From Candidatus Levyibacteriota bacterium (GTDB lineage Bacteria; Patescibacteriota; Microgenomatia; Levybacterales; GWA1-39-11), in contig JBCLLY010000001.1 in NCBI GenBank assembly GCA_039738415.1, positions 1-51,620 on the forward strand: a stretch of DNA of 51,620 bases. Direction: 5' to 3'. The notes under the pieces are model-generated. The model was not told the origin of the DNA. It ran no database searches and saw only the letters and a list, made by a program, of their open reading frames with translations. Every line of letters begins with the position of its first letter. Positions within the stretch are counted from its first letter, which is position 1. The translations under genes and the position numbers were made by a program. This document shows positions 2,844 through 51,380 of this stretch, piece after piece.

Positions 2844-2955
2844 TGGTGGGTGATCTTGGGATCGAACCCCACACATCTTGCCGTTCGCCTTTATGCACTA
2901 TTCGTGCACGGCTCACGGAGCGATTTGTGCGGGGCAGGCCAAGTACCTGTTCTTA
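2844..2955 (-). pseudogene. tRNA-like 3' fragment whose T-loop is split by a 72-nt insert
   Basis: Minus strand reads TAAGAACAGGTA-CTTGG-[72 nt]-TTCGATC-CCAAG-ATCACCC-A-CCA, i.e. anticodon-stem 3' strand, variable loop, T-arm, acceptor 3' strand and an encoded CCA. CTTGG/CCAAG pair across the insert. No matching 5' half lies adjacent. Confidence 0.5.
2867..2938 (-). ncRNA. unassigned conserved hairpin motif, copy 1 (RNA or folded ssDNA)
   Basis: CCTGCCCCGCACAAATCGCTCCGTGAGCCGTGCACGAATAGTGCATAAAGGCGAACGGCAAGATGTGTGGGG. Shares identical blocks of 15 and 11 nt and the same fold with 51271-51339. Compensatory changes occur in two helices. Confidence 0.45.
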
Positions 2956-2972
2956 CCGTGCCCTCCGCCTCC

Positions 2973-3098
2973 GGGCTGCAAACTGTTGTGGGCTGCCTAG
3001 GAATCGAACCTAGTACCTCTTTCTTACCGTGCCCGACTGCCACGGGGCTGCAAACTGTTGTGGGCTGCCTAGGAATCGAACCTAGTACCTCTTTCTTA
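2973..3098 (-). repeat. two exact 54-nt direct repeats (2973-3026 and 3045-3098, period 72 nt)
   Basis: Each repeat equals tRNA-Ile positions 36-73 plus 16 nt of 3' trailer. Character-by-character comparison of the two stretches. The upper copy is part of the intact tRNA-Ile gene. Confidence 0.95.
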
Positions 3099-3132
3099 TC
3101 AGGAAAGCGTTCTACCAATGAACTAGCAGCCC
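3061..3132 (-). tRNA. tRNA-Ile (anticodon GAU), no encoded CCA
   Basis: GGGCTGC-TA-GTTC-ATTGGTA-GAAC-G-CTTTC-CTGATAA-GAAAG-AGGTA-CTAGG-TTCGATT-CCTAG-GCAGCCC-A folds into a perfect 72-nt cloverleaf. Confidence 0.95.
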
Positions 3133-3410: not shown

Positions 3411-4871
3411 GTGAGCAATCATTCATTCAGTATTTTTAAGTTTGTCAAAAAAAACCTTCTTATAGTTTTTATAATTACTACGTCACTAATCTTTGACGTA
3501 CTGATATCATTGGATATTTTCGAGGGACTACGCGGACCAAATGATTTAATACTCGAATCCAGGTGGCCATATTATTTTGTAAATACTATGGATAAATTTT
3601 GGGCGCCTCTAAGTATTTTTGCGGTCTTATTATCTTTATACTACTTTGCCACAAAAACAAAACTAAGTCGAAAAAAGGAAATTTTTTTTCTTTTTGCATT
3701 TGTAGTTTCAAGTTTTGCATTTCAAATAGCCCTAGTCTATTTTAGTAGATTTGATATACCTGTTCTGTTCCGAAGAACCGTAGATCCTGGAATCAATGGA
3801 TATTTTTCAAGCGCAACAAAAATAGAAAGTGTTTCTGGGTTTGTTACAAATTATGAGGATGAATTTCCCATACTAGATAACCATGGAAGAGGTCACCCGC
3901 CTGGAGGAGTTATCGTTCTTAAGTGGATAATACAGTTTTTTGATTCAAATGAGAAAATCACCAACATATTTACTTCCTACATAAGACCCCCAAATAATGA
4001 TGGGATCTCCCTATGGAAACAGTTAACGTCTTCAGAACGCGCCGCTGCAATATTTAGCGCCTTCTTCTTGCACCTTCTAGCATCCTTAACTATCATACCG
4101 CTATACTACCTAACGAAAAAAATATTTAGTTCAAAAGCTGCTATTAAAAATATTGTCCTGCTGATTCTGACCCCAAGCTTTGCCTTCTTTGCTTTATTTT
4201 TTGACCCATTTTACGCAGTTTTTCCTATTTTAGTCGGATTATTATTAACCCATTCTTATAAAGAAAAAAGTGGTGTTTACGCTTTCATTGCATCGTTATT
4301 ATCGCTCGTTGGTTTGTTTTTCACCATATCCATTCTACCCGCATTAATACTGGTTTTTGTAATTTGGACGTTGTTTTTAATAAAAAAAAGGAAGGTTTGG
4401 TCGGGAGAATTTATGACGGGTGTTAGCGGAATGTTAGCTGGAATAACTTTTATGTATTTGATGGGATACGACTTCATAAATGTATCTTATCTAGTAATTA
4501 GAAATCAAATGCCTCGTGAATACCTAGCGTGGGTTTTTTATAACCCTTATGATTTCTTCATTTATTTGGGAGTGCCATCCGCGATTTTATTTATCTATAT
4601 AACGGTTGGCATCATTAGAAAAACTCTTGAATTTAAAGTTCAAACTGTTTCCGTCATTTGTTTTTGGATAATATTTGTGGGACTGACAATTTCGGGTGCA
4701 AGTCGCGGAGAAGTGGGAAGGATATGGATACCGCTTATGATGTTGCCAATTTTTCTTTCAGGAGATTTTTTGCAAAATAAAATTAAATCTGAAAAACTAT
4801 TTATAGCAATAGTAACCCTATTGTTTATTCAGATAATTGTGATGCAGGAATTCTGGGTTTCTATTTGGTAA
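3411..4871 (+). CDS. polytopic membrane protein, possibly a GT-C (ArnT/PMT-like) glycosyltransferase
   Basis: 486-aa ORF with a GTG start and about a dozen hydrophobic segments. The functional call rests on architecture only. Confidence 0.7.
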   Translation: MSNHSFSIFKFVKKNLLIVFIITTSLIFDVLISLDIFEGLRGPNDLILESRWPYYFVNTMDKFWAPLSIFAVLLSLYYFATKTKLSRKKEIFFLFAFVVSSFAFQIALVYFSRFDIPVLFRRTVDPGINGYFSSATKIESVSGFVTNYEDEFPILDNHGRGHPPGGVIVLKWIIQFFDSNEKITNIFTSYIRPPNNDGISLWKQLTSSERAAAIFSAFFLHLLASLTIIPLYYLTKKIFSSKAAIKNIVLLILTPSFAFFALFFDPFYAVFPILVGLLLTHSYKEKSGVYAFIASLLSLVGLFFTISILPALILVFVIWTLFLIKKRKVWSGEFMTGVSGMLAGITFMYLMGYDFINVSYLVIRNQMPREYLAWVFYNPYDFFIYLGVPSAILFIYITVGIIRKTLEFKVQTVSVICFWIIFVGLTISGASRGEVGRIWIPLMMLPIFLSGDFLQNKIKSEKLFIAIVTLLFIQIIVMQEFWVSIW

Positions 4872-5029: not shown

Positions 5030-6483
<1,454 letters not shown>

Positions 6484-6762
6484 AAATTTAACTCTGTTAA
6501 ATTTTTTGCAGTCTCGCCGCAACCCTAAGGCGTAGGCGGACAAAAAAATCTAATTTTGCAAATTTTGTATGACCGTTATTAAATTCAACGGACAAAAATG
6601 TATATTTTGATAAATATACAAAATGTAGTTTATCCTGCTTTCCGTAATTTATTCTAAAGAATTCTAGTCCGATTTAGCATCGGACTGACGTGAACTCTAT
6701 ATATTAATTTGAAAAGCAGTATTACGCTTAGTTATTAGAATAAATTCTAATTTCCAAGCAAA

Positions 6763-7309: not shown

Positions 7310-7800
7310 AAGAGTTTGATCCGACACAAATTGATTCCACGAGAGCATATATAGAAAGTCTGAATGCACCAGTCGAGACAACTGAAATTGACGGAATAGC
7401 ATATTCGTATTATGTATTACCCCAATCTTTAAATCCTGATTTACCTGATTTTGCCTTCAGAATGACTGGGTTAAATCCTGAAACAGGAAATACTGAGGGA
7501 ATATATGGAGTTTCAGATAGTGTTCCAGAATCTCTTCGACCATTTTGGGCAGCACACGAAGTAAGAGAATTTGCCCAAATTGGAATAAATGCCCCGGAAC
7601 GCTGTATCACATCAGAGCAGCAAACAGTCCGAAGTATTCCCCCAGAATTACAAAGTGGGTATGTCAATAGAAGAATAGCATTCTTTAATAATCTATTAAA
7701 GTACTTTCAGACAGAAATTGAAAAAGACAGTGGAAATTTTTCCGTTGAAGATATTGAAGAAGCAAAAAAAACCAAGGCATATCTTGAATCACTTTCATAA
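7306..7800 (+). CDS. hypothetical protein
   Basis: 164-aa ORF whose ATG overlaps the stop of the upstream gene (ATGA), suggesting an operon with 7088-7309. Confidence 0.65.
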   Translation: MKEFDPTQIDSTRAYIESLNAPVETTEIDGIAYSYYVLPQSLNPDLPDFAFRMTGLNPETGNTEGIYGVSDSVPESLRPFWAAHEVREFAQIGINAPERCITSEQQTVRSIPPELQSGYVNRRIAFFNNLLKYFQTEIEKDSGNFSVEDIEEAKKTKAYLESLS

Positions 7801-11340: not shown

Positions 11341-11934
11341 ATGTACAAACTTGTAACTACTCCTGACCCGATTCTCAATAATGTCGCAAGACCCGTGACT
11401 GACTTTGATAAAAAACTTAAAGAGACTCTGGGTTCAATGGAACAAGCTTTAAGAATTACCCAGGATCCTATCGGAGTTGGACTTGCAGCACCTCAAGTAG
11501 GACTATCCCTGAGGATTTTTCAAATGCGTCCTGACGAAAAATCCCAAGTCCGTTCATTTATCAATCCGGAAATAGTGAGGATTTCTGAGGAAACAAGTGA
11601 TTACATTTCTCAATCCGGAAAAAAGAAAAAGGCAATCGAAGACGGGAGAATTCCCCCACCCAAAGGTAAAAGGCTTTTGGAAGGCTGTCTTTCGATTCCA
11701 AATATTTGGGGCTATGTTCAGCGGAAAAAAGAAGTGACTCTTGCTTTTCAAGACGCGGATGGAAATAAACACGAGCAAGTTTTTAGCGGATTTCTGGCGA
11801 TAATTGTCCAACACGAAATCGATCACTTAAATGGAACTCTCTTTACAAAACATGTTATAGATCAAAATGAAAAACTTTATAAATCCCACAAAGATAAAAC
11901 CGGCGAAGATGTCTTTGAAAAAATAGAGATCTAG
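11341..11934 (+). CDS. def: peptide deformylase
   Basis: GVGLAAPQVG, EGCLSIP and HEIDHLNG motifs. Confidence 0.93.
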   Translation: MYKLVTTPDPILNNVARPVTDFDKKLKETLGSMEQALRITQDPIGVGLAAPQVGLSLRIFQMRPDEKSQVRSFINPEIVRISEETSDYISQSGKKKKAIEDGRIPPPKGKRLLEGCLSIPNIWGYVQRKKEVTLAFQDADGNKHEQVFSGFLAIIVQHEIDHLNGTLFTKHVIDQNEKLYKSHKDKTGEDVFEKIEI

Positions 11935-17894: not shown

Positions 17895-17995
17895 GTGTCA
17901 TTCCGGACTTGATCCGGAATCTATATCTGTATCCCGCATCCCATTCGGCAGGCTCAGGGCCTGAGCGAAGTCGAACGGCAAGTTCGGGATGACAA
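17895..17995. repeat. GC-rich palindromic element in the rplJ leader
   Basis: GTCATTCCGGACTTGATCCGGAATC ... GCTCAGGGCCTGAGC GAAGTCGAACGGCAAG TTCGGGATGAC. The ends are inverted (GTCATTCCGGA / TTCGGGATGAC). Confidence 0.75.
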
Positions 17996-26413: not shown

Positions 26414-27205
26414 ATGGAACCTATAAATAACACTCTTCAAGGAAATTTTCCGCCAGAAAATCCTGTTAGCACGGATATTCAAGCAAATCAATCTACCCAA
26501 ACCCACCCAACAAATACTACAAAAAGAAATAATCTAGGAAAAATAATAAGCATCATAATTATTCTAATTTTATTATCTGTATCTGGAGTTGCCGGATATT
26601 TTATTTATAAAAATTTAAATCAATCAAACCCTGAACAAGTCGCTTGCACTATGGAGGCGATGATTTGTCCTGATGGAAGTAGTGTGGGGAGAAGCGGTCC
26701 CAACTGTGAATTTGCTCCTTGTCCAAAATCAGAATCAACCTCAACACCTGATACCTGGCAAACCAAGTCCATCTCCCAAATAAGTCTTTCGTTTAAATAT
26801 CCACAGGACTGGGAAGAAAAAAAGACAGCTACAGGAGGAGTTGTATTGATAGGGCCCAAAGATAATGAAACTACTTGGATTGGCATCAATGATTCAACTT
26901 ATATAAATCTTGGCGATACTCCAGAAAAATTATCTGAGCAAGCGCTTGGGAATGAAACCCCAACGGGAAAAAAACAAATAACGATAGATGGACATAATGC
27001 TGTTTACCAAGAAAGGCGCTATCTAAATAGTGCAAGAATTGAAGTTTACATTGGAGAGGTGAAACAAATGACTAACTTTGCAGAAGGACCTAGATTAACA
27101 AACGGAACCCAAAGTGTTTTCATGGAGATCAAAGACTTAAGCGAACTGGATTCAAGTAGAAAAATTTTCGACCAAATCCTCTCCACCTTTCAGTTTACTA
27201 ACTGA
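26414..27205 (+). CDS. membrane-anchored surface-protein family member (C-terminal ILSTFQFTN)
   Basis: 263 aa: polar N-terminus, one TM (IISIIIILILLSVSGVAGYFIY), extracytoplasmic domain, family C-terminal motif. Confidence 0.8.
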   Translation: MEPINNTLQGNFPPENPVSTDIQANQSTQTHPTNTTKRNNLGKIISIIIILILLSVSGVAGYFIYKNLNQSNPEQVACTMEAMICPDGSSVGRSGPNCEFAPCPKSESTSTPDTWQTKSISQISLSFKYPQDWEEKKTATGGVVLIGPKDNETTWIGINDSTYINLGDTPEKLSEQALGNETPTGKKQITIDGHNAVYQERRYLNSARIEVYIGEVKQMTNFAEGPRLTNGTQSVFMEIKDLSELDSSRKIFDQILSTFQFTN

Positions 27206-27254
27206 CCCGCCAAAGATCGCTCTTCAAGTCGTGTTCGAATAGAACTGAAAAGAC

Positions 27255-27443
27255 TTGAAGCAAGATCAGGAGGGCAAATTCACTGATCAACGACCACCTG
27301 GTGGACAATATTCAACCGAAGGACAATCTTGTGGGAAAAATGCTGGAGCTGCAGGAGATGCACAATGTGAACCAAGCCTTACCTGTGTATACCAAAGCGA
27401 GGAGGCAATACAAAATAAGATAGGTACCTGTCTTAAAAAGTAA
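27255..27443 (+). CDS. possible small Cys-rich peptide (4 Cys); coding status uncertain
   Basis: 62-codon ORF with a TTG start and no Shine-Dalgarno. An identical copy at 30670-30837 lacks any start codon. Confidence 0.25.
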   Translation: MKQDQEGKFTDQRPPGGQYSTEGQSCGKNAGAAGDAQCEPSLTCVYQSEEAIQNKIGTCLKK

Positions 27444-33100: not shown

Positions 33101-33136
33101 TGCAACCATTTCGTCCATATGGTGAAATTTGTTGCA
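33101..33136. promoter_or_regulatory. 36-nt imperfect palindrome, copy 1 (candidate operator)
   Basis: TGCAACCATTTCGTCCATATGGTGAAATTTGTTGCA, centred on CCATATGG. Confidence 0.5.
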
Positions 33137-33169
33137 ATCGCAACAAATTTCAATTACGATTTATTTGCC

Positions 33170-33820
33170 ATGAGGAAAAAAACGTCTGACATTATTTCTG
33201 ATGAACAAATCAAACATCTTGGAATTCTTCTCTTTCAAAAAATAAAGCTTGAAAAAGAGGATATACAAAACGCAAAAATAAAACATGTATTAACGCTTAT
33301 TGCAAAAGCGGGAACAGTTGCGGTGATGCTTACTGCTCCAAACACAGCATTGCTTGCAAGGGAGCTTTTTGAAGATAAGAAAGATTTTAGAATCTGGAAG
33401 CAATTTAACGAAAGATTGCTAAGACAGAATTTAAAAAGACTTGCCAAGCAAAAAATTATAGACATTTCCCAAAAAAACGGCAATCAGATAATAAAGATTT
33501 CAGAGAAAGGAAAAAGGAAAATCCTATCCTATGTAATTGATGAACTAATGCTTAAAAAACCTACTAGGTGGGATGGCAAGTGGCGACTAGTAACGTATGA
33601 TATTCCTGTAAAAAAAAGTCGTAAAGACAAGATAATAAGCAACACTCTTAAAAGACTTGGTTTTTTTAAAATTCAAAACAGTGTATATATTTCACCCTAC
33701 CCTTGTTTTGATGAAATCGAATTCATGAGAGAATATTATTTTTTGGGTATGAATATCAAATATTTTATTGTTACGAAAATAGAAGACCAAGAAGCATACA
33801 GGACTTACTTTGGAATTTAG
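33170..33820 (+). CDS. PaaX-like regulator (winged-helix N-terminus, Cas2-like-fold C-terminal domain)
   Basis: WDGKWRLVTYDIPVKKSRKDKIISNTLKRLGFFKIQNSVYISP is the PaaX-C / Cas2-fold pattern. The track start at 33119 lies inside the palindrome, so I prefer the ATG at 33170. Confidence 0.7.
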   Translation: MRKKTSDIISDEQIKHLGILLFQKIKLEKEDIQNAKIKHVLTLIAKAGTVAVMLTAPNTALLARELFEDKKDFRIWKQFNERLLRQNLKRLAKQKIIDISQKNGNQIIKISEKGKRKILSYVIDELMLKKPTRWDGKWRLVTYDIPVKKSRKDKIISNTLKRLGFFKIQNSVYISPYPCFDEIEFMREYYFLGMNIKYFIVTKIEDQEAYRTYFGI

Positions 33821-42384: not shown

Positions 42385-42975
42385 TTATTTATTAATTTCT
42401 TCACCTAAAAAATCTTGAATGTTTCTATATTGATGAATTTCCTCCGCAGTAAACCATAATCCTGCCTCAACTTTTGCCTCATCAACAGAACCCGACGCAT
42501 GTACTATATTCATAACACCACGCCTTTCGACGTTCGCGTATGCTGCTGAATCAGTTGAAAAATCACCACGGATTGTTCCACCAACCGCCGAAACAGGCAT
42601 AGTTGGTCCTACTAAAGAAATTACATTCTCAACTGCGTGTCGACCTTCCCACACCATTGGAACTACGGGACCGCTTTTCATGTATTTTAATAACCATCCC
42701 ATTACTAATTTACCTAATTCGAGCTTATCTTTAGTTCCAAAATCTTTCTGCGCATCCATTCCATATTTTTCGTATGTAGAAAGAGTTTTTCCTCCAAGCG
42801 TCATTAGATATTGCTCATCTGTACTTTTATAATGTTTTTTAAGCAGCTCCTCGGGAGCTGAAACCATTTTTATAGCAACAAGTTTTAACCCTGCATTTTC
42901 AAATCTCTTTATAACTTCCCCGACCAAGCCACGCTTTACTCCCTCCGGCTTTACCATAATAAATGTTTTCTCCAT
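42385..42975 (-). CDS. ndk: nucleoside-diphosphate kinase (long form)
   Basis: FIMVKPEGVKRGLVGEVIKRFENAGLKLVAIKMV and NIVHASGS motifs. I moved the start to 42975. Confidence 0.88.
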   Translation of the reverse strand: MEKTFIMVKPEGVKRGLVGEVIKRFENAGLKLVAIKMVSAPEELLKKHYKSTDEQYLMTLGGKTLSTYEKYGMDAQKDFGTKDKLELGKLVMGWLLKYMKSGPVVPMVWEGRHAVENVISLVGPTMPVSAVGGTIRGDFSTDSAAYANVERRGVMNIVHASGSVDEAKVEAGLWFTAEEIHQYRNIQDFLGEEINK

Positions 42976-43038
42976 AACCCATATCATACAAAGCATTAAG
43001 ATAAAAATCAACACGAAATAATTTGCTATAATCTAATT

Positions 43039-50349: not shown

Positions 50350-51231
50350 CTAATCCAACCGGAGTTCTTTCAGGAATTTCCTAAATTCTCCATTTAACGC
50401 AGGGTGCTGGAGGGCAAATTCGACTACTGTCTTCATATATTCAAGTTTTGACCCCGTATCATAGTACTTTCCATTCTCTATCTCTACTCCATACACGGGC
50501 ACACCTTCATCACGAAGTTTATTTATCGCATCAATCAGCCAAATCTCCCCGCCTTTTCCGGGTCCAATATTTTTTAATGCTCCAAAAATTTCAGGCGGTA
50601 AAATATACGCTCCATGCGTTGCCATATTCGACGGAGCATGCTCGGGATCAGGCTTCTCAACAATTTCTTTAATTCTAAAAACATTACCTTCAACTGTTTC
50701 GATATCAGCAATTCCATAGCGCTTGAGGTCTTCTTTGTTCTCTATCCTTACACCGGAAATAACTATTCCTCCGTACTTGTCGTATACATCAATCATTTGC
50801 TTCAAGCGCGCGGGCTTTGAATAAATAAATTCATCTCCCCAAAGAACTGCAAATGGTTCGTTTTCTATTACCGGTTCTGCCGCCAAAACAGGTGTTCCAT
50901 TTCCATACGGACCTTTTTGTCTAACATAAATAAAATTTGCCAACTCTGAAATCTTTTGTACTTCCTTAAGCATTTCTTCTTTTCCACCGTCTTTAAGATT
51001 TTTCACTAAATCTTGATTTAGAACGTCGAAATGATCCTCTATGGCACGCTTTAGCGCACCCGTAACAATAATAATATCTTCAATTCCGGATTCAACCGCC
51101 TCTTCAACTACGTATTGGATAACCGGTTTATCAACTACAGGAAGCATTTCTTTGGGCATGGCCTTTGTTTGGGGGAGAAACCGGGTTCCAAAACCAGCAG
51201 CGGGAATTACAGCTTTACGGATTTTAGTCAT
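50350..51231 (-). CDS. galU: UTP--glucose-1-phosphate uridylyltransferase
   Basis: VIPAAGFGTRFLPQTKAMPKEMLPVVDKP motif; a GGAGGG Shine-Dalgarno 7 nt upstream of the ATG. Confidence 0.93.
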   Translation of the reverse strand: MTKIRKAVIPAAGFGTRFLPQTKAMPKEMLPVVDKPVIQYVVEEAVESGIEDIIIVTGALKRAIEDHFDVLNQDLVKNLKDGGKEEMLKEVQKISELANFIYVRQKGPYGNGTPVLAAEPVIENEPFAVLWGDEFIYSKPARLKQMIDVYDKYGGIVISGVRIENKEDLKRYGIADIETVEGNVFRIKEIVEKPDPEHAPSNMATHGAYILPPEIFGALKNIGPGKGGEIWLIDAINKLRDEGVPVYGVEIENGKYYDTGSKLEYMKTVVEFALQHPALNGEFRKFLKELRLD

Positions 51232-51380
51232 ATAAACCCTCCGAATTAATACTATCTATAAAAACAGCTCGCCCGCCAGTAATTGCTCCGTGAGCCGTGT
51301 ATGAATAATACTTTAAGGCGAACGGGAAAATGCGGCGGGAACCAGCAGCGGGAATTACAGCTTTACGGATTTTAGTCATA
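51192..51380. repeat. 41-nt exact direct repeat (51192-51232 and 51340-51380) bracketing a 107-nt insert
   Basis: Each repeat is the galU start (1 nt upstream of the ATG plus the first 40 nt of the CDS). Compared base by base; offset 148. Confidence 0.95.
51271..51339 (+). ncRNA. unassigned conserved hairpin motif, copy 2
   Basis: GCCCGCCAGTAATTGCTCCGTGAGCCGTGTATGAATAATACTTTAAGGCGAACGGGAAAATGCGGCGGG; same fold as 2867-2938. Confidence 0.45.

Follow-up and report, generated by a model that had tools for sequence, protein, structure and literature searches.

A large, apparently new family of folded repeats of about 70 nucleotides in Microgenomates, with three copies in a Levyibacteriota contig

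The stretch of DNA analysed here, referred to below as the window, comprises 51,620 nucleotides of contig JBCLLY010000001.1 of a Candidatus Levyibacteriota bacterium (assembly GCA_039738415.1). A GC-rich hairpin of about 70 nt had been noticed in it at two unrelated loci, one beside a tRNA-like sequence and one beside a duplicated start of galU, which raises the question of what kind of element this is and why its 3' side abuts a piece of a gene. The analysis indicates that the hairpin belongs to a large and, it seems, undescribed family of folded interspersed repeats in Microgenomates, of which the window holds three copies in 51 kb. The bacteria concerned, of the Candidate Phyla Radiation (CPR) or Patescibacteria, make up a large share of bacterial diversity and have tiny genomes that are thought to be poor in repetitive DNA.

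Hairpin copies of the window

Both hairpins of the original prediction (copies 1 and 2, Table 1) read as they had been written down, at the same coordinates and on the same strands. The 15-mer GCTCCGTGAGCCGTG and the 11-mer AAGGCGAACGG are exact in both, and the counts of shared blocks were equalled in none of 100 shuffles. Folding energies and z-scores agree with the common irregular hairpin that had been drawn for them. The strand named as the structured one is the better folder in each case, with -36.7 kcal/mol against -29.1 for the complement in copy 1 and -28.6 kcal/mol against -21.0 in copy 2.

A covariance model built from 113 copies was run unfiltered over the window and then over 100 loci. 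In the window, copies 1 and 2 scored E-values, rough as these are, of about 1e-21 to 1e-23, and the count of two had to be raised by a third copy, whose model match spans 27202-27278 on the plus strand. Copy 3 begins at the TGA stop codon of the open reading frame (ORF) 26414-27205 and has a variant core, with helix P3 as CUUC/GAAG, P4 as GUC/GAC and AA/UU in place of the tandem GA/GA. A further link, drawn from an 11-mer (CGAACGGCAAG) shared with the rplJ leader, was not upheld: the 11-mer is present at 17973-17983, but the model has no match and the hairpin no homologue there, and by our arithmetic about 1.5 such 11-mers common to a 70-mer and 103 kb are expected by chance.

Size and distribution of the family

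The exact pattern CTCCGTGAGCC-N12-40-AAGGCGAACGG was scanned in one genome per GTDB species. At least 118 stretches match it, of which 112 are true copies and six are chance matches with long gaps in GC-rich genomes. Through the construction of the pattern, 22 core bases of alignment A1 are invariant and the collection is biased to one core variant; copies from one metagenome-assembled genome (MAG) are not independent. About ten further copies missed by the pattern were found with the covariance model over the 100 loci.

Among the matches listed, the host records are nearly all MAGs of Patescibacteria, Microgenomates, Levy-, Gottesman-, Roizman- and Woesebacteria; a few are labelled Saccharimonadia or Paceibacterota and one Nanoarchaeota. 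Many Third Party Annotation (TPA) bins that carry the hairpin are titled 'uncultured Gammaproteobacteria' (L005, L007, L009, L011-L013, L063 and others). These titles look wrong, because both gene content and, for L063, the orthologous galU insertion indicate Patescibacteria. No match to the two-block pattern was obtained in viral contigs.

A search of the whole window against Rfam 15 at gathering score returned only 16S rRNA and two tRNAs, and nothing was found at the loci of copies 1 and 2 at E<=10 with lax filters. Literature searches by taxon, by concept and by the literal core sequence gave no relevant account of the hairpin. The motif is thus, as had been supposed, an unrecognised one with regard to Rfam 15, and further copies exist in other genomes, with 112 true ones among the matches listed. 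None of the findings named beforehand as refuting the motif was obtained.

Structure and covariation

In the model-based alignment of the 112 copies, which was fitted to the model and hence favours structure, 94.2% of the cells are standard pairs, and 20 of the 22 pairs are changed on both sides (367 cells). The observed pairing values were reached in 0 of 500 shuffles, and when the 3' partners were slid by one to three columns pairing fell to only 11-47.5%. The conclusion that the strands pair is safe despite the fitted alignment because of this gap and because of the variants in copies that had not been selected by the pattern. In these unselected copies P3 changes from CCGU/ACGG to CUUC/GAAG, CCUU/AAGG, ACUUU/AAAGU or CCUC/GAGG, P4 changes from GCC/GGC to GUC/GAC or GGC/GCC, and some have Watson-Crick pairs in place of the tandem G.A/A.G. 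The core blocks described as identical are therefore exact in copies 1 and 2 but vary elsewhere in the family, every time with compensation.

The strongest single evidence for pairing comes from the four orthologous copies at galU (window, L063, L140 and L160), which show compensatory double changes in every helix: CCCGCC/GGCGGG versus CCCCGU/ACGGGG in P1, AACC/GGUU versus AUCC/GGAU in P2, CCGU/ACGG versus CUUC/GAAG versus GCAU/AUGC in P3, GCC/GGC versus ACC/GGU in P4, and UAU/AUA versus UAC/GUA versus CUAC/GUAG in the apical stem. Covariation in the 112 copies and the four orthologues is very strong, and compensated changes occur in selected and unselected copies alike, which bears out the view that selection acts on pairing in RNA or in folded single-stranded DNA. 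On the strand named in the original prediction, G.U combinations outnumber A.C (61 versus 33 overall and 33 versus 7 in inner P1), and the constrained fold, whether RNA or single-stranded DNA, is for this reason assigned to that strand, hereafter the sense strand of the hairpin.

The consensus core reads CCGU-GA-GCC...GGC-GA-ACGG, with the tandem G.A as a symmetric 2x2 loop, and the length of the element has its mode at 70-71 nt. The strict '3-nt bulge' of the earlier description does not hold for the family, where the consensus is a 4-bp apical stem flanked by GU and UGAAAA. A K-turn has a 3-nt bulge directly 5' of the G.A pairs, a hammerhead the core CUGANGA...GAAA, and domain V of group II introns a paired AGC triad and a 2-nt bulge. 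These three, the bulge-helix-bulge and the twister were each rejected, as each lacks a defining feature when held against the consensus.

Several copies are nested or composite. A small GC-rich palindrome (CCTGCCTCGCCGGCAAGGCGGGCG or similar) sits in the apical loop at L101 (2158-2250) and L065 (866-960); L101 carries two nested copies in tandem, the second about 40 nt downstream, flanked by the perfect 21-nt direct repeat GCTACCTTAGATATATAATGA. In L035, L040, L055, L060, L072, L090, L095, L026 and L011 an AT-rich hairpin (CTTAGAAACnCTTA, a loop of 12-17 nt, TTAGnGTTTCTTAA) lies directly 5' of the GC hairpin, and the two form a composite element of a subfamily. A related module of about 50 nt (ATTGACATTTCTTT...GAGAGTTTAGAAATGAC) begins right after tRNA 3' ends in L011, L019 and L097. 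Another stem-loop, for example TCAA-GGGGTAAAGT-13 nt-ACTTTACCTC-GCAG, precedes the hairpin in L044 (hairpin at 7316-7392), L017, L023, L029 and L042, and its first 10 nt restart directly after the hairpin; this may be another repeat family that the hairpin has entered.

The galU locus

The start of galU is present twice in the window as a perfect direct repeat of 41 nt. The functional start (T2) belongs to the intact gene, and the orphan start (T1) directly adjoins the 3' side of copy 2 and keeps the native upstream region. The linker between the hairpin and T2 contains a Shine-Dalgarno sequence, GGAGGG, 5 nt before the ATG. The frame opened by T1 continues across hairpin and linker as far as a TAA that lies 5 nt beyond the real ATG.

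Among the best 80 metagenomic galU loci (46-80% protein identity to the window GalU), the hairpin is found in only two, L140 and L160, and stands upstream of galU in both. The four filled galU loci share one insertion point, after GCnGCnGGT(T), which corresponds to PAAG|FGT in the protein, and their linkers are homologous and all begin with CGAGCTGT. The shared insertion point and the homologous linkers argue for one old insertion, inherited or exchanged among lineages, and for the other loci being empty sites. Identity between T1 and T2 is 41/41 in the window, 36/37 in L140, 29/36 in L063 and 18/25 in L160.

Table 1. Positions of the hairpin copies and adjoining features in the window.
Feature	Position	Strand	Basis and remarks
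Diverged tRNA-Ile-like 3' half, end TTCGATCCCAAGATCACCCACCA: T-loop, T-stem 3' strand, acceptor 3' strand, CCA	2844..2866	-	unique in the window
Hairpin copy 1	2867..2938	-	sequence; fold z -5.25; covariance model 78.6 bits
P1 of copy 1, CCCCGCACA / TGTGTGGGG	2926-2934 / 2867-2875	-	sequence
Two tandem copies of tRNA-Ile 3' half, from the anticodon loop, plus 16 nt trailer	2967..3098	-	60 nt at 97%, 72-nt period
Hairpin copy 3, variant core	27205..27275	+	covariance model 55.8 bits, E 2e-15; sequence
Displaced gene-end fragment after copy 3, FTDQRPPGG...CGKNAGAAGDAQCEPSLTC...GTCLKK*	27279..27443	+	translation; aligned with P0052, P0062, P0057, P0031
galU (UTP-glucose-1-phosphate uridylyltransferase family), including functional start T2 (51192-51232)	50350..51232	-	Pfam NTP_transferase 7.3e-28; 596 relatives
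Linker from hairpin to galU start, begins CGAGCTGTT	51233..51270	-	homologous to linkers of L063, L140, L160
Hairpin copy 2, P1 CCCGCC/GGCGGG	51271..51339	+	fold z -3.2; antisense to galU; covariance model 75.0 bits
Orphan galU start T1, position -2 to +39, MTKIRKAVIPAAG	51340..51380	-	41/41 direct repeat; gene-sense reading

Duplicated gene ends in other genomes

The arrangement at galU recurs. Read on the sense strand of the hairpin, it consists of an intact gene end, a linker of 7-40 nt, the hairpin and, with a gap of 0, a second copy of the gene end. Besides galU in the four loci named, it is found at pth, encoding peptidyl-tRNA hydrolase (L034, L068, L076, L106), at tsaD (L113), at a gene with a PHP domain (L007, L089) and at the PsbP-like gene of the window, and in L054 an old tRNA-Pro is split by a new tRNA-Pro with linker and hairpin. 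The earlier observation that the 3' side adjoins gene-end fragments thus extends to other genomes, at galU, pth, tsaD, the PHP-domain gene and tRNA-Pro. In a protein-level search, duplicated starts were seen in at least 8 of the 53 loci of one orientation versus none of the 25 of the other. Long flanking repeats, of 9 to 41 or more nt, occur in about 10% of the copies.

As a rule T1 retains the native promoter-proximal position and T2 follows hairpin and linker; at the pth loci a -10-like TATAAT or TATAGT lies 7-15 nt before the ATG of T1. Over ten loci and four gene families, the 56 differences between T1 and T2 are distributed 14:2:40 over the three codon positions. As codon changes, 37 are synonymous and eight conservative, TCC versus AGT for serine among them. 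The linkers between T1 and T2 have diverged freely. Either T1 is under purifying selection, or it has been refreshed repeatedly from functional alleles by gene conversion or homologous exchange. The orphan start of L007 resembles the functional allele of L089, and that of L089 has a 3-nt deletion and non-conservative changes; these two cases favour some refreshing and some decay.

In all 11 loci the T1 frame is open through the antisense hairpin and ends between -21 and +12 nt from the ATG of T2, with an ATGA overlap of stop and start in L034, L076, L106 and L113. This geometry is that of termination-reinitiation coupling, the coupling itself being an inference.

Some sources and roles of the duplicates were rejected. 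Run-off of reverse transcription at an mRNA 5' end fails to explain L113, where the orphan has a 5' leader with a Shine-Dalgarno sequence, and L140, where the repeat boundary lies at codon 5/6 and not at the ATG. An orphan acting as antisense 'guide' would mismatch its target at every third base in L160. Hopping of the gene 60 type is contradicted by codons that differ (GGT and GGG at L063 and L160, CTT and TTA at L068) and by the real start having its own ATG and Shine-Dalgarno sequence.

The tRNA-Ile and PsbP-like loci

Copy 1 has the same orientation as the 16S and tRNA-Ile genes. The 5' strand of a T-stem, CTTGG within gtaagaacaggtacttgg (2939-2956), lies across the hairpin from its partner, and the CTTGG/CCAAG pairing can be read directly. 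As the T-stem strands flank it, copy 1 is placed inside the T-loop of a tRNA 3'-half fragment. This half is the third and diverged member of a series of tandem tRNA-Ile 3' halves and ends in CCA, unlike the resident tRNA genes. The upstream one of the two closer tandem copies is part of the intact tRNA-Ile (3060-3132, minus strand); the duplication of tRNA-Ile(GAT) reaches the discriminator, and the trailer is caacagtttgcagccc. The stack looks like att-site-like scars or repeated replacements of the gene end. An ORF of 486 amino acids that has no Pfam match (3411-4871, plus strand) lies between the tRNA-Ile and the 16S gene (5030-6484, minus strand). No 23S gene follows the 16S gene in the window, and the rRNA genes therefore appear unlinked.

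In more distant homologues the PsbP-like domain runs on into a Cys-rich C-terminal tail, to which the tail encoded after copy 3 is homologous. Neither hairpin nor tail is present in the two closest relatives, whose proteins stop at FRFTN* and FKFTQ* just as the window ORF does. Copy 3 thus separates a short-ended gene from a displaced longer end. The idea that it interrupts a gene was upheld in part: the tail is a genuine homologous end, yet the closest relatives stop naturally at this place. At residues of about 78-104 the same ORF contains CTMEAMICPDGSSVGRSGPNCEFAPCP, which occurs at 70-90% identity in hundreds of otherwise unrelated small proteins from CPR and DPANN metagenomes, several of them annotated PF27300, PF27023 or PF05375.

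Genomic settings and orientation

Most copies are intergenic; others lie at stop codons, upstream of ribosome-binding sites and inside gene fragments. In a recurrent setting the 5' side of the hairpin adjoins the Shine-Dalgarno sequence and start codon of a gene on the opposite strand (CAT-N6-10-CACCTCC-N3-6-hairpin). In another, the opposite end of the hairpin is in contact or overlap with the upstream gene's stop codon. A gene start in the first orientation lies within 70 nt of 53 of the 112 copies, compared with 25 in the other orientation, and 19 copies stand between divergent gene starts. In L011 there are arrays of tRNA, about 45 nt, hairpin, 8 nt and tRNA, in which the tRNA-linker-hairpin units all have one orientation. 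In L022, L028, L096 and L099 the hairpin is located about 45 nt upstream of the 16S 5' end.

Copies inside ORFs were found in L039, L037 and L093. The one in the rpsA-like ORF of L039 encodes 25 in-frame residues within an S1 domain; with the insert Pfam matches S1 only in split form (residues 261-307 to profile positions 28-74), and without the 25 residues the match is contiguous (208-282 to 3-74). At least three reading frames are used across the in-ORF loci, with the peptides ..LPFAFSVLFVHGSRS.., ..LTVRL.. and ..RSPSGTIRTRLTE...

The orientation of the copies is polar. Where a tRNA is the neighbour, both point the same way in 13 of 15 copies; between co-directional protein genes antisense copies prevail by 31:10, and coding is mostly opposite the hairpin strand in 68 loci versus 39 where it is mostly on the same strand. 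In the 3-kb flanks the hairpin-sense strand has a negative GC skew, and is thus the C-rich strand, in 86 of 107 loci, a bias confounded with gene orientation; it is also negative in 22 of the 39 loci with most coding on the hairpin strand. Within the window, copies 2 and 3 are on the plus (negative-skew) strand and the tRNA-linked copy 1 is on the minus strand. The better-folding strand is accordingly on the C-rich strand, not the presumed lagging-strand template.

In most copies the sense strand carries TGA, TAG, TGA and TAA in one frame. Its frames are open in 40%, 40% and 1% of copies, and the antisense frames in 56-68%, compared with 41% of shuffles. An 'open in 5 of 6 frames' property was dropped, as it fits typical sequence and the family-wide effect is only modest. 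A promoter on the sense strand was also rejected: the TANNNT hexamer that reaches its peak, 17% of copies, at -13 is an arm of the AT-rich hairpin of the composite. So was an intrinsic terminator, since the 3' flank is A-rich at +2 to +4 and has no T-run, and since there are the copies between divergent starts. CAAG at the 3' flank, tried as a short target motif, belongs to one subfamily only and is weak in the whole set.

Interpretation and alternatives

With a confidence slightly above even, and from sequence comparison, we read the hairpin as the unit of a family of non-autonomous, structure-dependent interspersed repeats native to Microgenomates/Patescibacteria, with REP/REPIN (repetitive extragenic palindromic sequences and the hairpins formed with them) and the Rickettsia palindromic elements (RPE) as their nearest known counterparts. 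This reading is based on the multiple copies, their presence and absence at orthologous sites, the varied settings that include in-frame ones, the compensatory helices and the polar orientation. The nested and composite forms lend it support, being typical of interspersed repeats.

Such an element would spread, or would have spread, through a factor encoded elsewhere that recognises the single-stranded fold. An enzyme of the HUH/Y1 or tyrosine-recombinase type acting on single-stranded DNA is a candidate, and a route at the RNA level is possible. Orientation may then reflect tolerance: the stable, stop-bearing sense fold would be accepted in tRNA and rRNA transcripts, and the weaker antisense form, open in all three frames in most copies, in mRNAs, with selection removing the sense fold from mRNAs or from the strand that replication exposes. 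Where an essential gene (galU, pth, tsaD, the PHP-domain gene) came to contain the element within its first 7-15 codons, a second complete start with its own ribosome-binding site would rescue the gene; ribosomes from the orphan start would translate across the hairpin and terminate at the real start or beside it, which would probably couple the two translationally.

Several results speak against repeats of this kind. Neither transposase nor integrase nor reverse-transcriptase domains were found in the 36 window ORFs scanned, which are ordinary housekeeping genes, DprA among them. The GTAG/CGTC tag of REPs is absent from the consensus and from the flanks of +/-12 nt, and these flanks show neither a regular short target-site duplication nor a strong target motif. 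Within one genome the copies have diverged instead of being near-identical, and nothing indicates a recent burst. Old copies at galU have each kept their pairing, unlike decaying junk, which points to either a function of each copy or overwriting by gene conversion. Nor does a purely selfish insertion predict that the orphan starts evolve as coding sequence. Three features go beyond the known palindromic repeats: helices at orthologous sites evolve by compensation throughout a very broad clade, orientation obeys rules that depend on transcript type and strand, and the duplicated gene starts are of a coding-like nature.

A host RNA module is possible though not probable. The hairpin would in that case be a stem-loop for processing, stability or translation coupling, with a conserved protein as its partner or a conserved RNase cutting it, and kept copy by copy through selection, its mobility being incidental. 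Compensatory evolution at one orthologous locus, in lineages whose GalU proteins are only 55-66% identical, agrees with this, as do the RNA-like features (tandem G.A pairs, the GAAUA loop and a GCU/UAA internal loop), the 47% of copies within 70 nt upstream of a start codon, the orientation by transcript type (with tRNAs 13:2, against mRNAs about 3:1) and an orphan upstream ORF that in every case crosses the hairpin without a stop and terminates at the real start. However, at most loci the flanking protein genes run antisense to the better-folding strand, so that the selected fold would not be in the mRNA. No common gene class is served; ORFs, a tRNA fragment and divergent, convergent and tandem spacers all contain copies. 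Moreover, several copies have Watson-Crick pairs instead of the tandem GA, and the conservation of the loops is inflated by the 22 core bases that the search pattern fixed. It is quite improbable, in our estimate, that the hairpin is a folded single-stranded recombination site like attC of integrons, at which units of a gene or gene end with linker and hairpin are inserted or exchanged and the resident end is displaced 3'. The displaced fragment does lie always on the 3' side with gap 0, and at galU, pth, tsaD, the PHP gene, tRNA-Pro and the PsbP-like gene the 5' side has an intact end with linker. The same-orientation arrays of L011, structure kept while stem sequence varies, the strand bias relative to GC skew and the DprA gene of the window would also suit such a site, and the differences of T1 and T2 are like those between functional alleles, which is what the arrival of one by recombination would produce, the likeness between the L007 orphan and the L089 allele being a case in point. 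Against it stand the lack of an integrase among the window ORFs and of conserved ends like the R and L boxes (GTTRRRY), the roughly 90% of copies without a duplicated gene end, and the galU unit itself, whose homologous linkers make it look like one ancient, vertically inherited insertion.

That T1 is the true N-terminus, and that hairpin, linker and T2 are an intervening sequence removed from the mRNA or bypassed by the ribosome, we consider highly improbable. The native promoter-proximal position of T1 and its substitutions, which are those of a translated, constrained sequence (2/56 at second positions, ten loci, four gene families), would follow naturally; but T2 has its own ATG and Shine-Dalgarno sequence and is equally constrained, take-off and landing codons differ in L063, L160 and L068, no intron-like Rfam match and no conserved junctions resembling splice sites were seen, and the damaged T1 of L089 (the 3-nt deletion and non-conservative changes) hardly suits a true N-terminus. 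A decaying insertion is inadequate too, because the orphan starts are coding-like and the orthologous copies compensated. It is conceivable, if unlikely, that CPR bacteria have a hitherto unknown genetic device built around the hairpin, which would then be more than a selfish repeat, either an attC-like recombination of single-stranded DNA without the hallmarks of integrons or a translational module with two starts. In the former, a fold-specific system would install a gene start or tRNA, with linker and hairpin, into the resident homologous gene; in the latter, the orphan start would be kept by purifying selection because ribosomes would have to begin there, open the hairpin and then initiate anew at the real start.

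If the family is one of interspersed repeats, as we favour, its sharing among Levy-, Gottesman-, Roizman- and Woesebacteria makes it a marker for genome dynamics in uncultivated lineages and a handle on an enzyme or RNA-binding protein that recognises the fold. It is a source of annotation errors as well, in the form of split or extended ORFs, false gene starts and pseudo-tRNA fragments. The coding-like duplicated starts bear on the long-standing question of how essential genes survive the insertion of a selfish palindrome, for which rescue by a second start, translational coupling and recombination with functional alleles are candidate answers.

Comparison with known systems

According to two reports (PMC3116915, PMC3337134), REP and REPIN sequences, mobilised by RAYT (REP-associated tyrosine transposase), are short GC-rich imperfect palindromes, many per genome, mostly extragenic, non-autonomous and long-persistent, and a REPIN forms a hairpin roughly as long as the present element, with internal bubbles. 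A GTAG/CGTC terminal tag is characteristic of REPs (PMC3733652). The present family shares with them a GC-rich imperfect palindrome that folds as a single strand, the multiple copies and the mainly extragenic location. It differs in that GTAG occurs only in the apical stem of one subfamily, in stems that vary between copies with compensation whereas REPs are near-identical within a genome, and in its very broad clade, its entry into coding sequence and its duplicated gene starts. Neither the Y1_Tnp domain of RAYT, a Y1 HUH transposase whose single-copy gene is flanked by REPs, nor any other transposase domain was found in the 36 ORFs of the window.

Rickettsia palindromic elements are palindromic repeats of a reduced-genome lineage that occur in-frame inside protein genes and in non-coding DNA (PMC10969869). 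The in-frame insertion into a conserved coding gene, the 25 residues in the S1 domain of L039, is a common trait. RPE are, however, about 100-150 bp long with a conserved peptide, whereas the hairpin has about 70 nt, uses several frames and is mostly intergenic, and there is no sequence relationship between them. Bacterial MITEs (miniature transposable elements with inverted repeats) such as Correia, ERIC and Chunjie are small and non-autonomous, form hairpins in the transcript, are occasionally intragenic and can supply expression signals (PMC10969869). A typical MITE is AT-rich, with terminal inverted repeats that are conserved and target-site duplications of fixed length from a parent insertion sequence (IS), none of which were found for the hairpin; in contrast to MITEs of the DDE type, its P1 arms are not conserved and covary (CCCGCC/GGCGGG, UCCUCC/GGAGGA, CCCCGU/ACGGGG). 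The ends of IS200/IS605 elements are biased in orientation relative to replication, their active strand being on the lagging-strand template; the hairpin has an orientation bias (86 of 107), but on the C-rich strand and confounded with gene orientation, and no TnpA was seen in the window.

Integron attC sites of 57-141 nt are recognised by their fold, with variable stems, conserved unpaired features and only one strand that matters, and they end gene units in same-orientation arrays. The hairpin resembles them in size, in a fold that is kept while sequence varies, in one strand that matters and in the same-orientation arrays of L011. The ends and flanks of the hairpin have no R''/L''-L'/R' boxes or GTTRRRY, its internal core is conserved where that of attC is variable, and neither an integron integrase nor attI was seen in the window. 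Integrative elements at tRNA 3' ends or gene ends similarly leave an intact end on one side and a displaced copy on the other, and the tRNA duplications begin, as with those elements, in the anticodon loop or T-loop; here, however, 30-110 nt of linker and hairpin separate the repeats, with no integrase and no cargo. Programmed bypass, as in T4 gene 60 and the mitochondrial byp elements, has matching take-off and landing codons on either side of the gap, and those at L063, L160 and L068 do not match.

Other features of the window

Two further ORFs each give a Pfam match in two stretches, that of nucleoside diphosphate kinase (NDK; 42385-43014, minus strand, 209 amino acids) and that of peptide deformylase (11341-11934, plus strand, 197 amino acids), which suggests internal insertions; no hairpin homologue was found within either. 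The product of an ORF of 233 amino acids at 33119-33820 (plus strand), near which no CRISPR array was noticed, has a central Cas2-like domain of the PaaX type (1.1e-15) and a weak CRISPR_Cas2 match. On the plus strand, GC skew stays below zero in each 4-kb piece of 1-51620 (-0.04 to -0.17), with genes on both strands, and the whole window appears to be one replichore arm.

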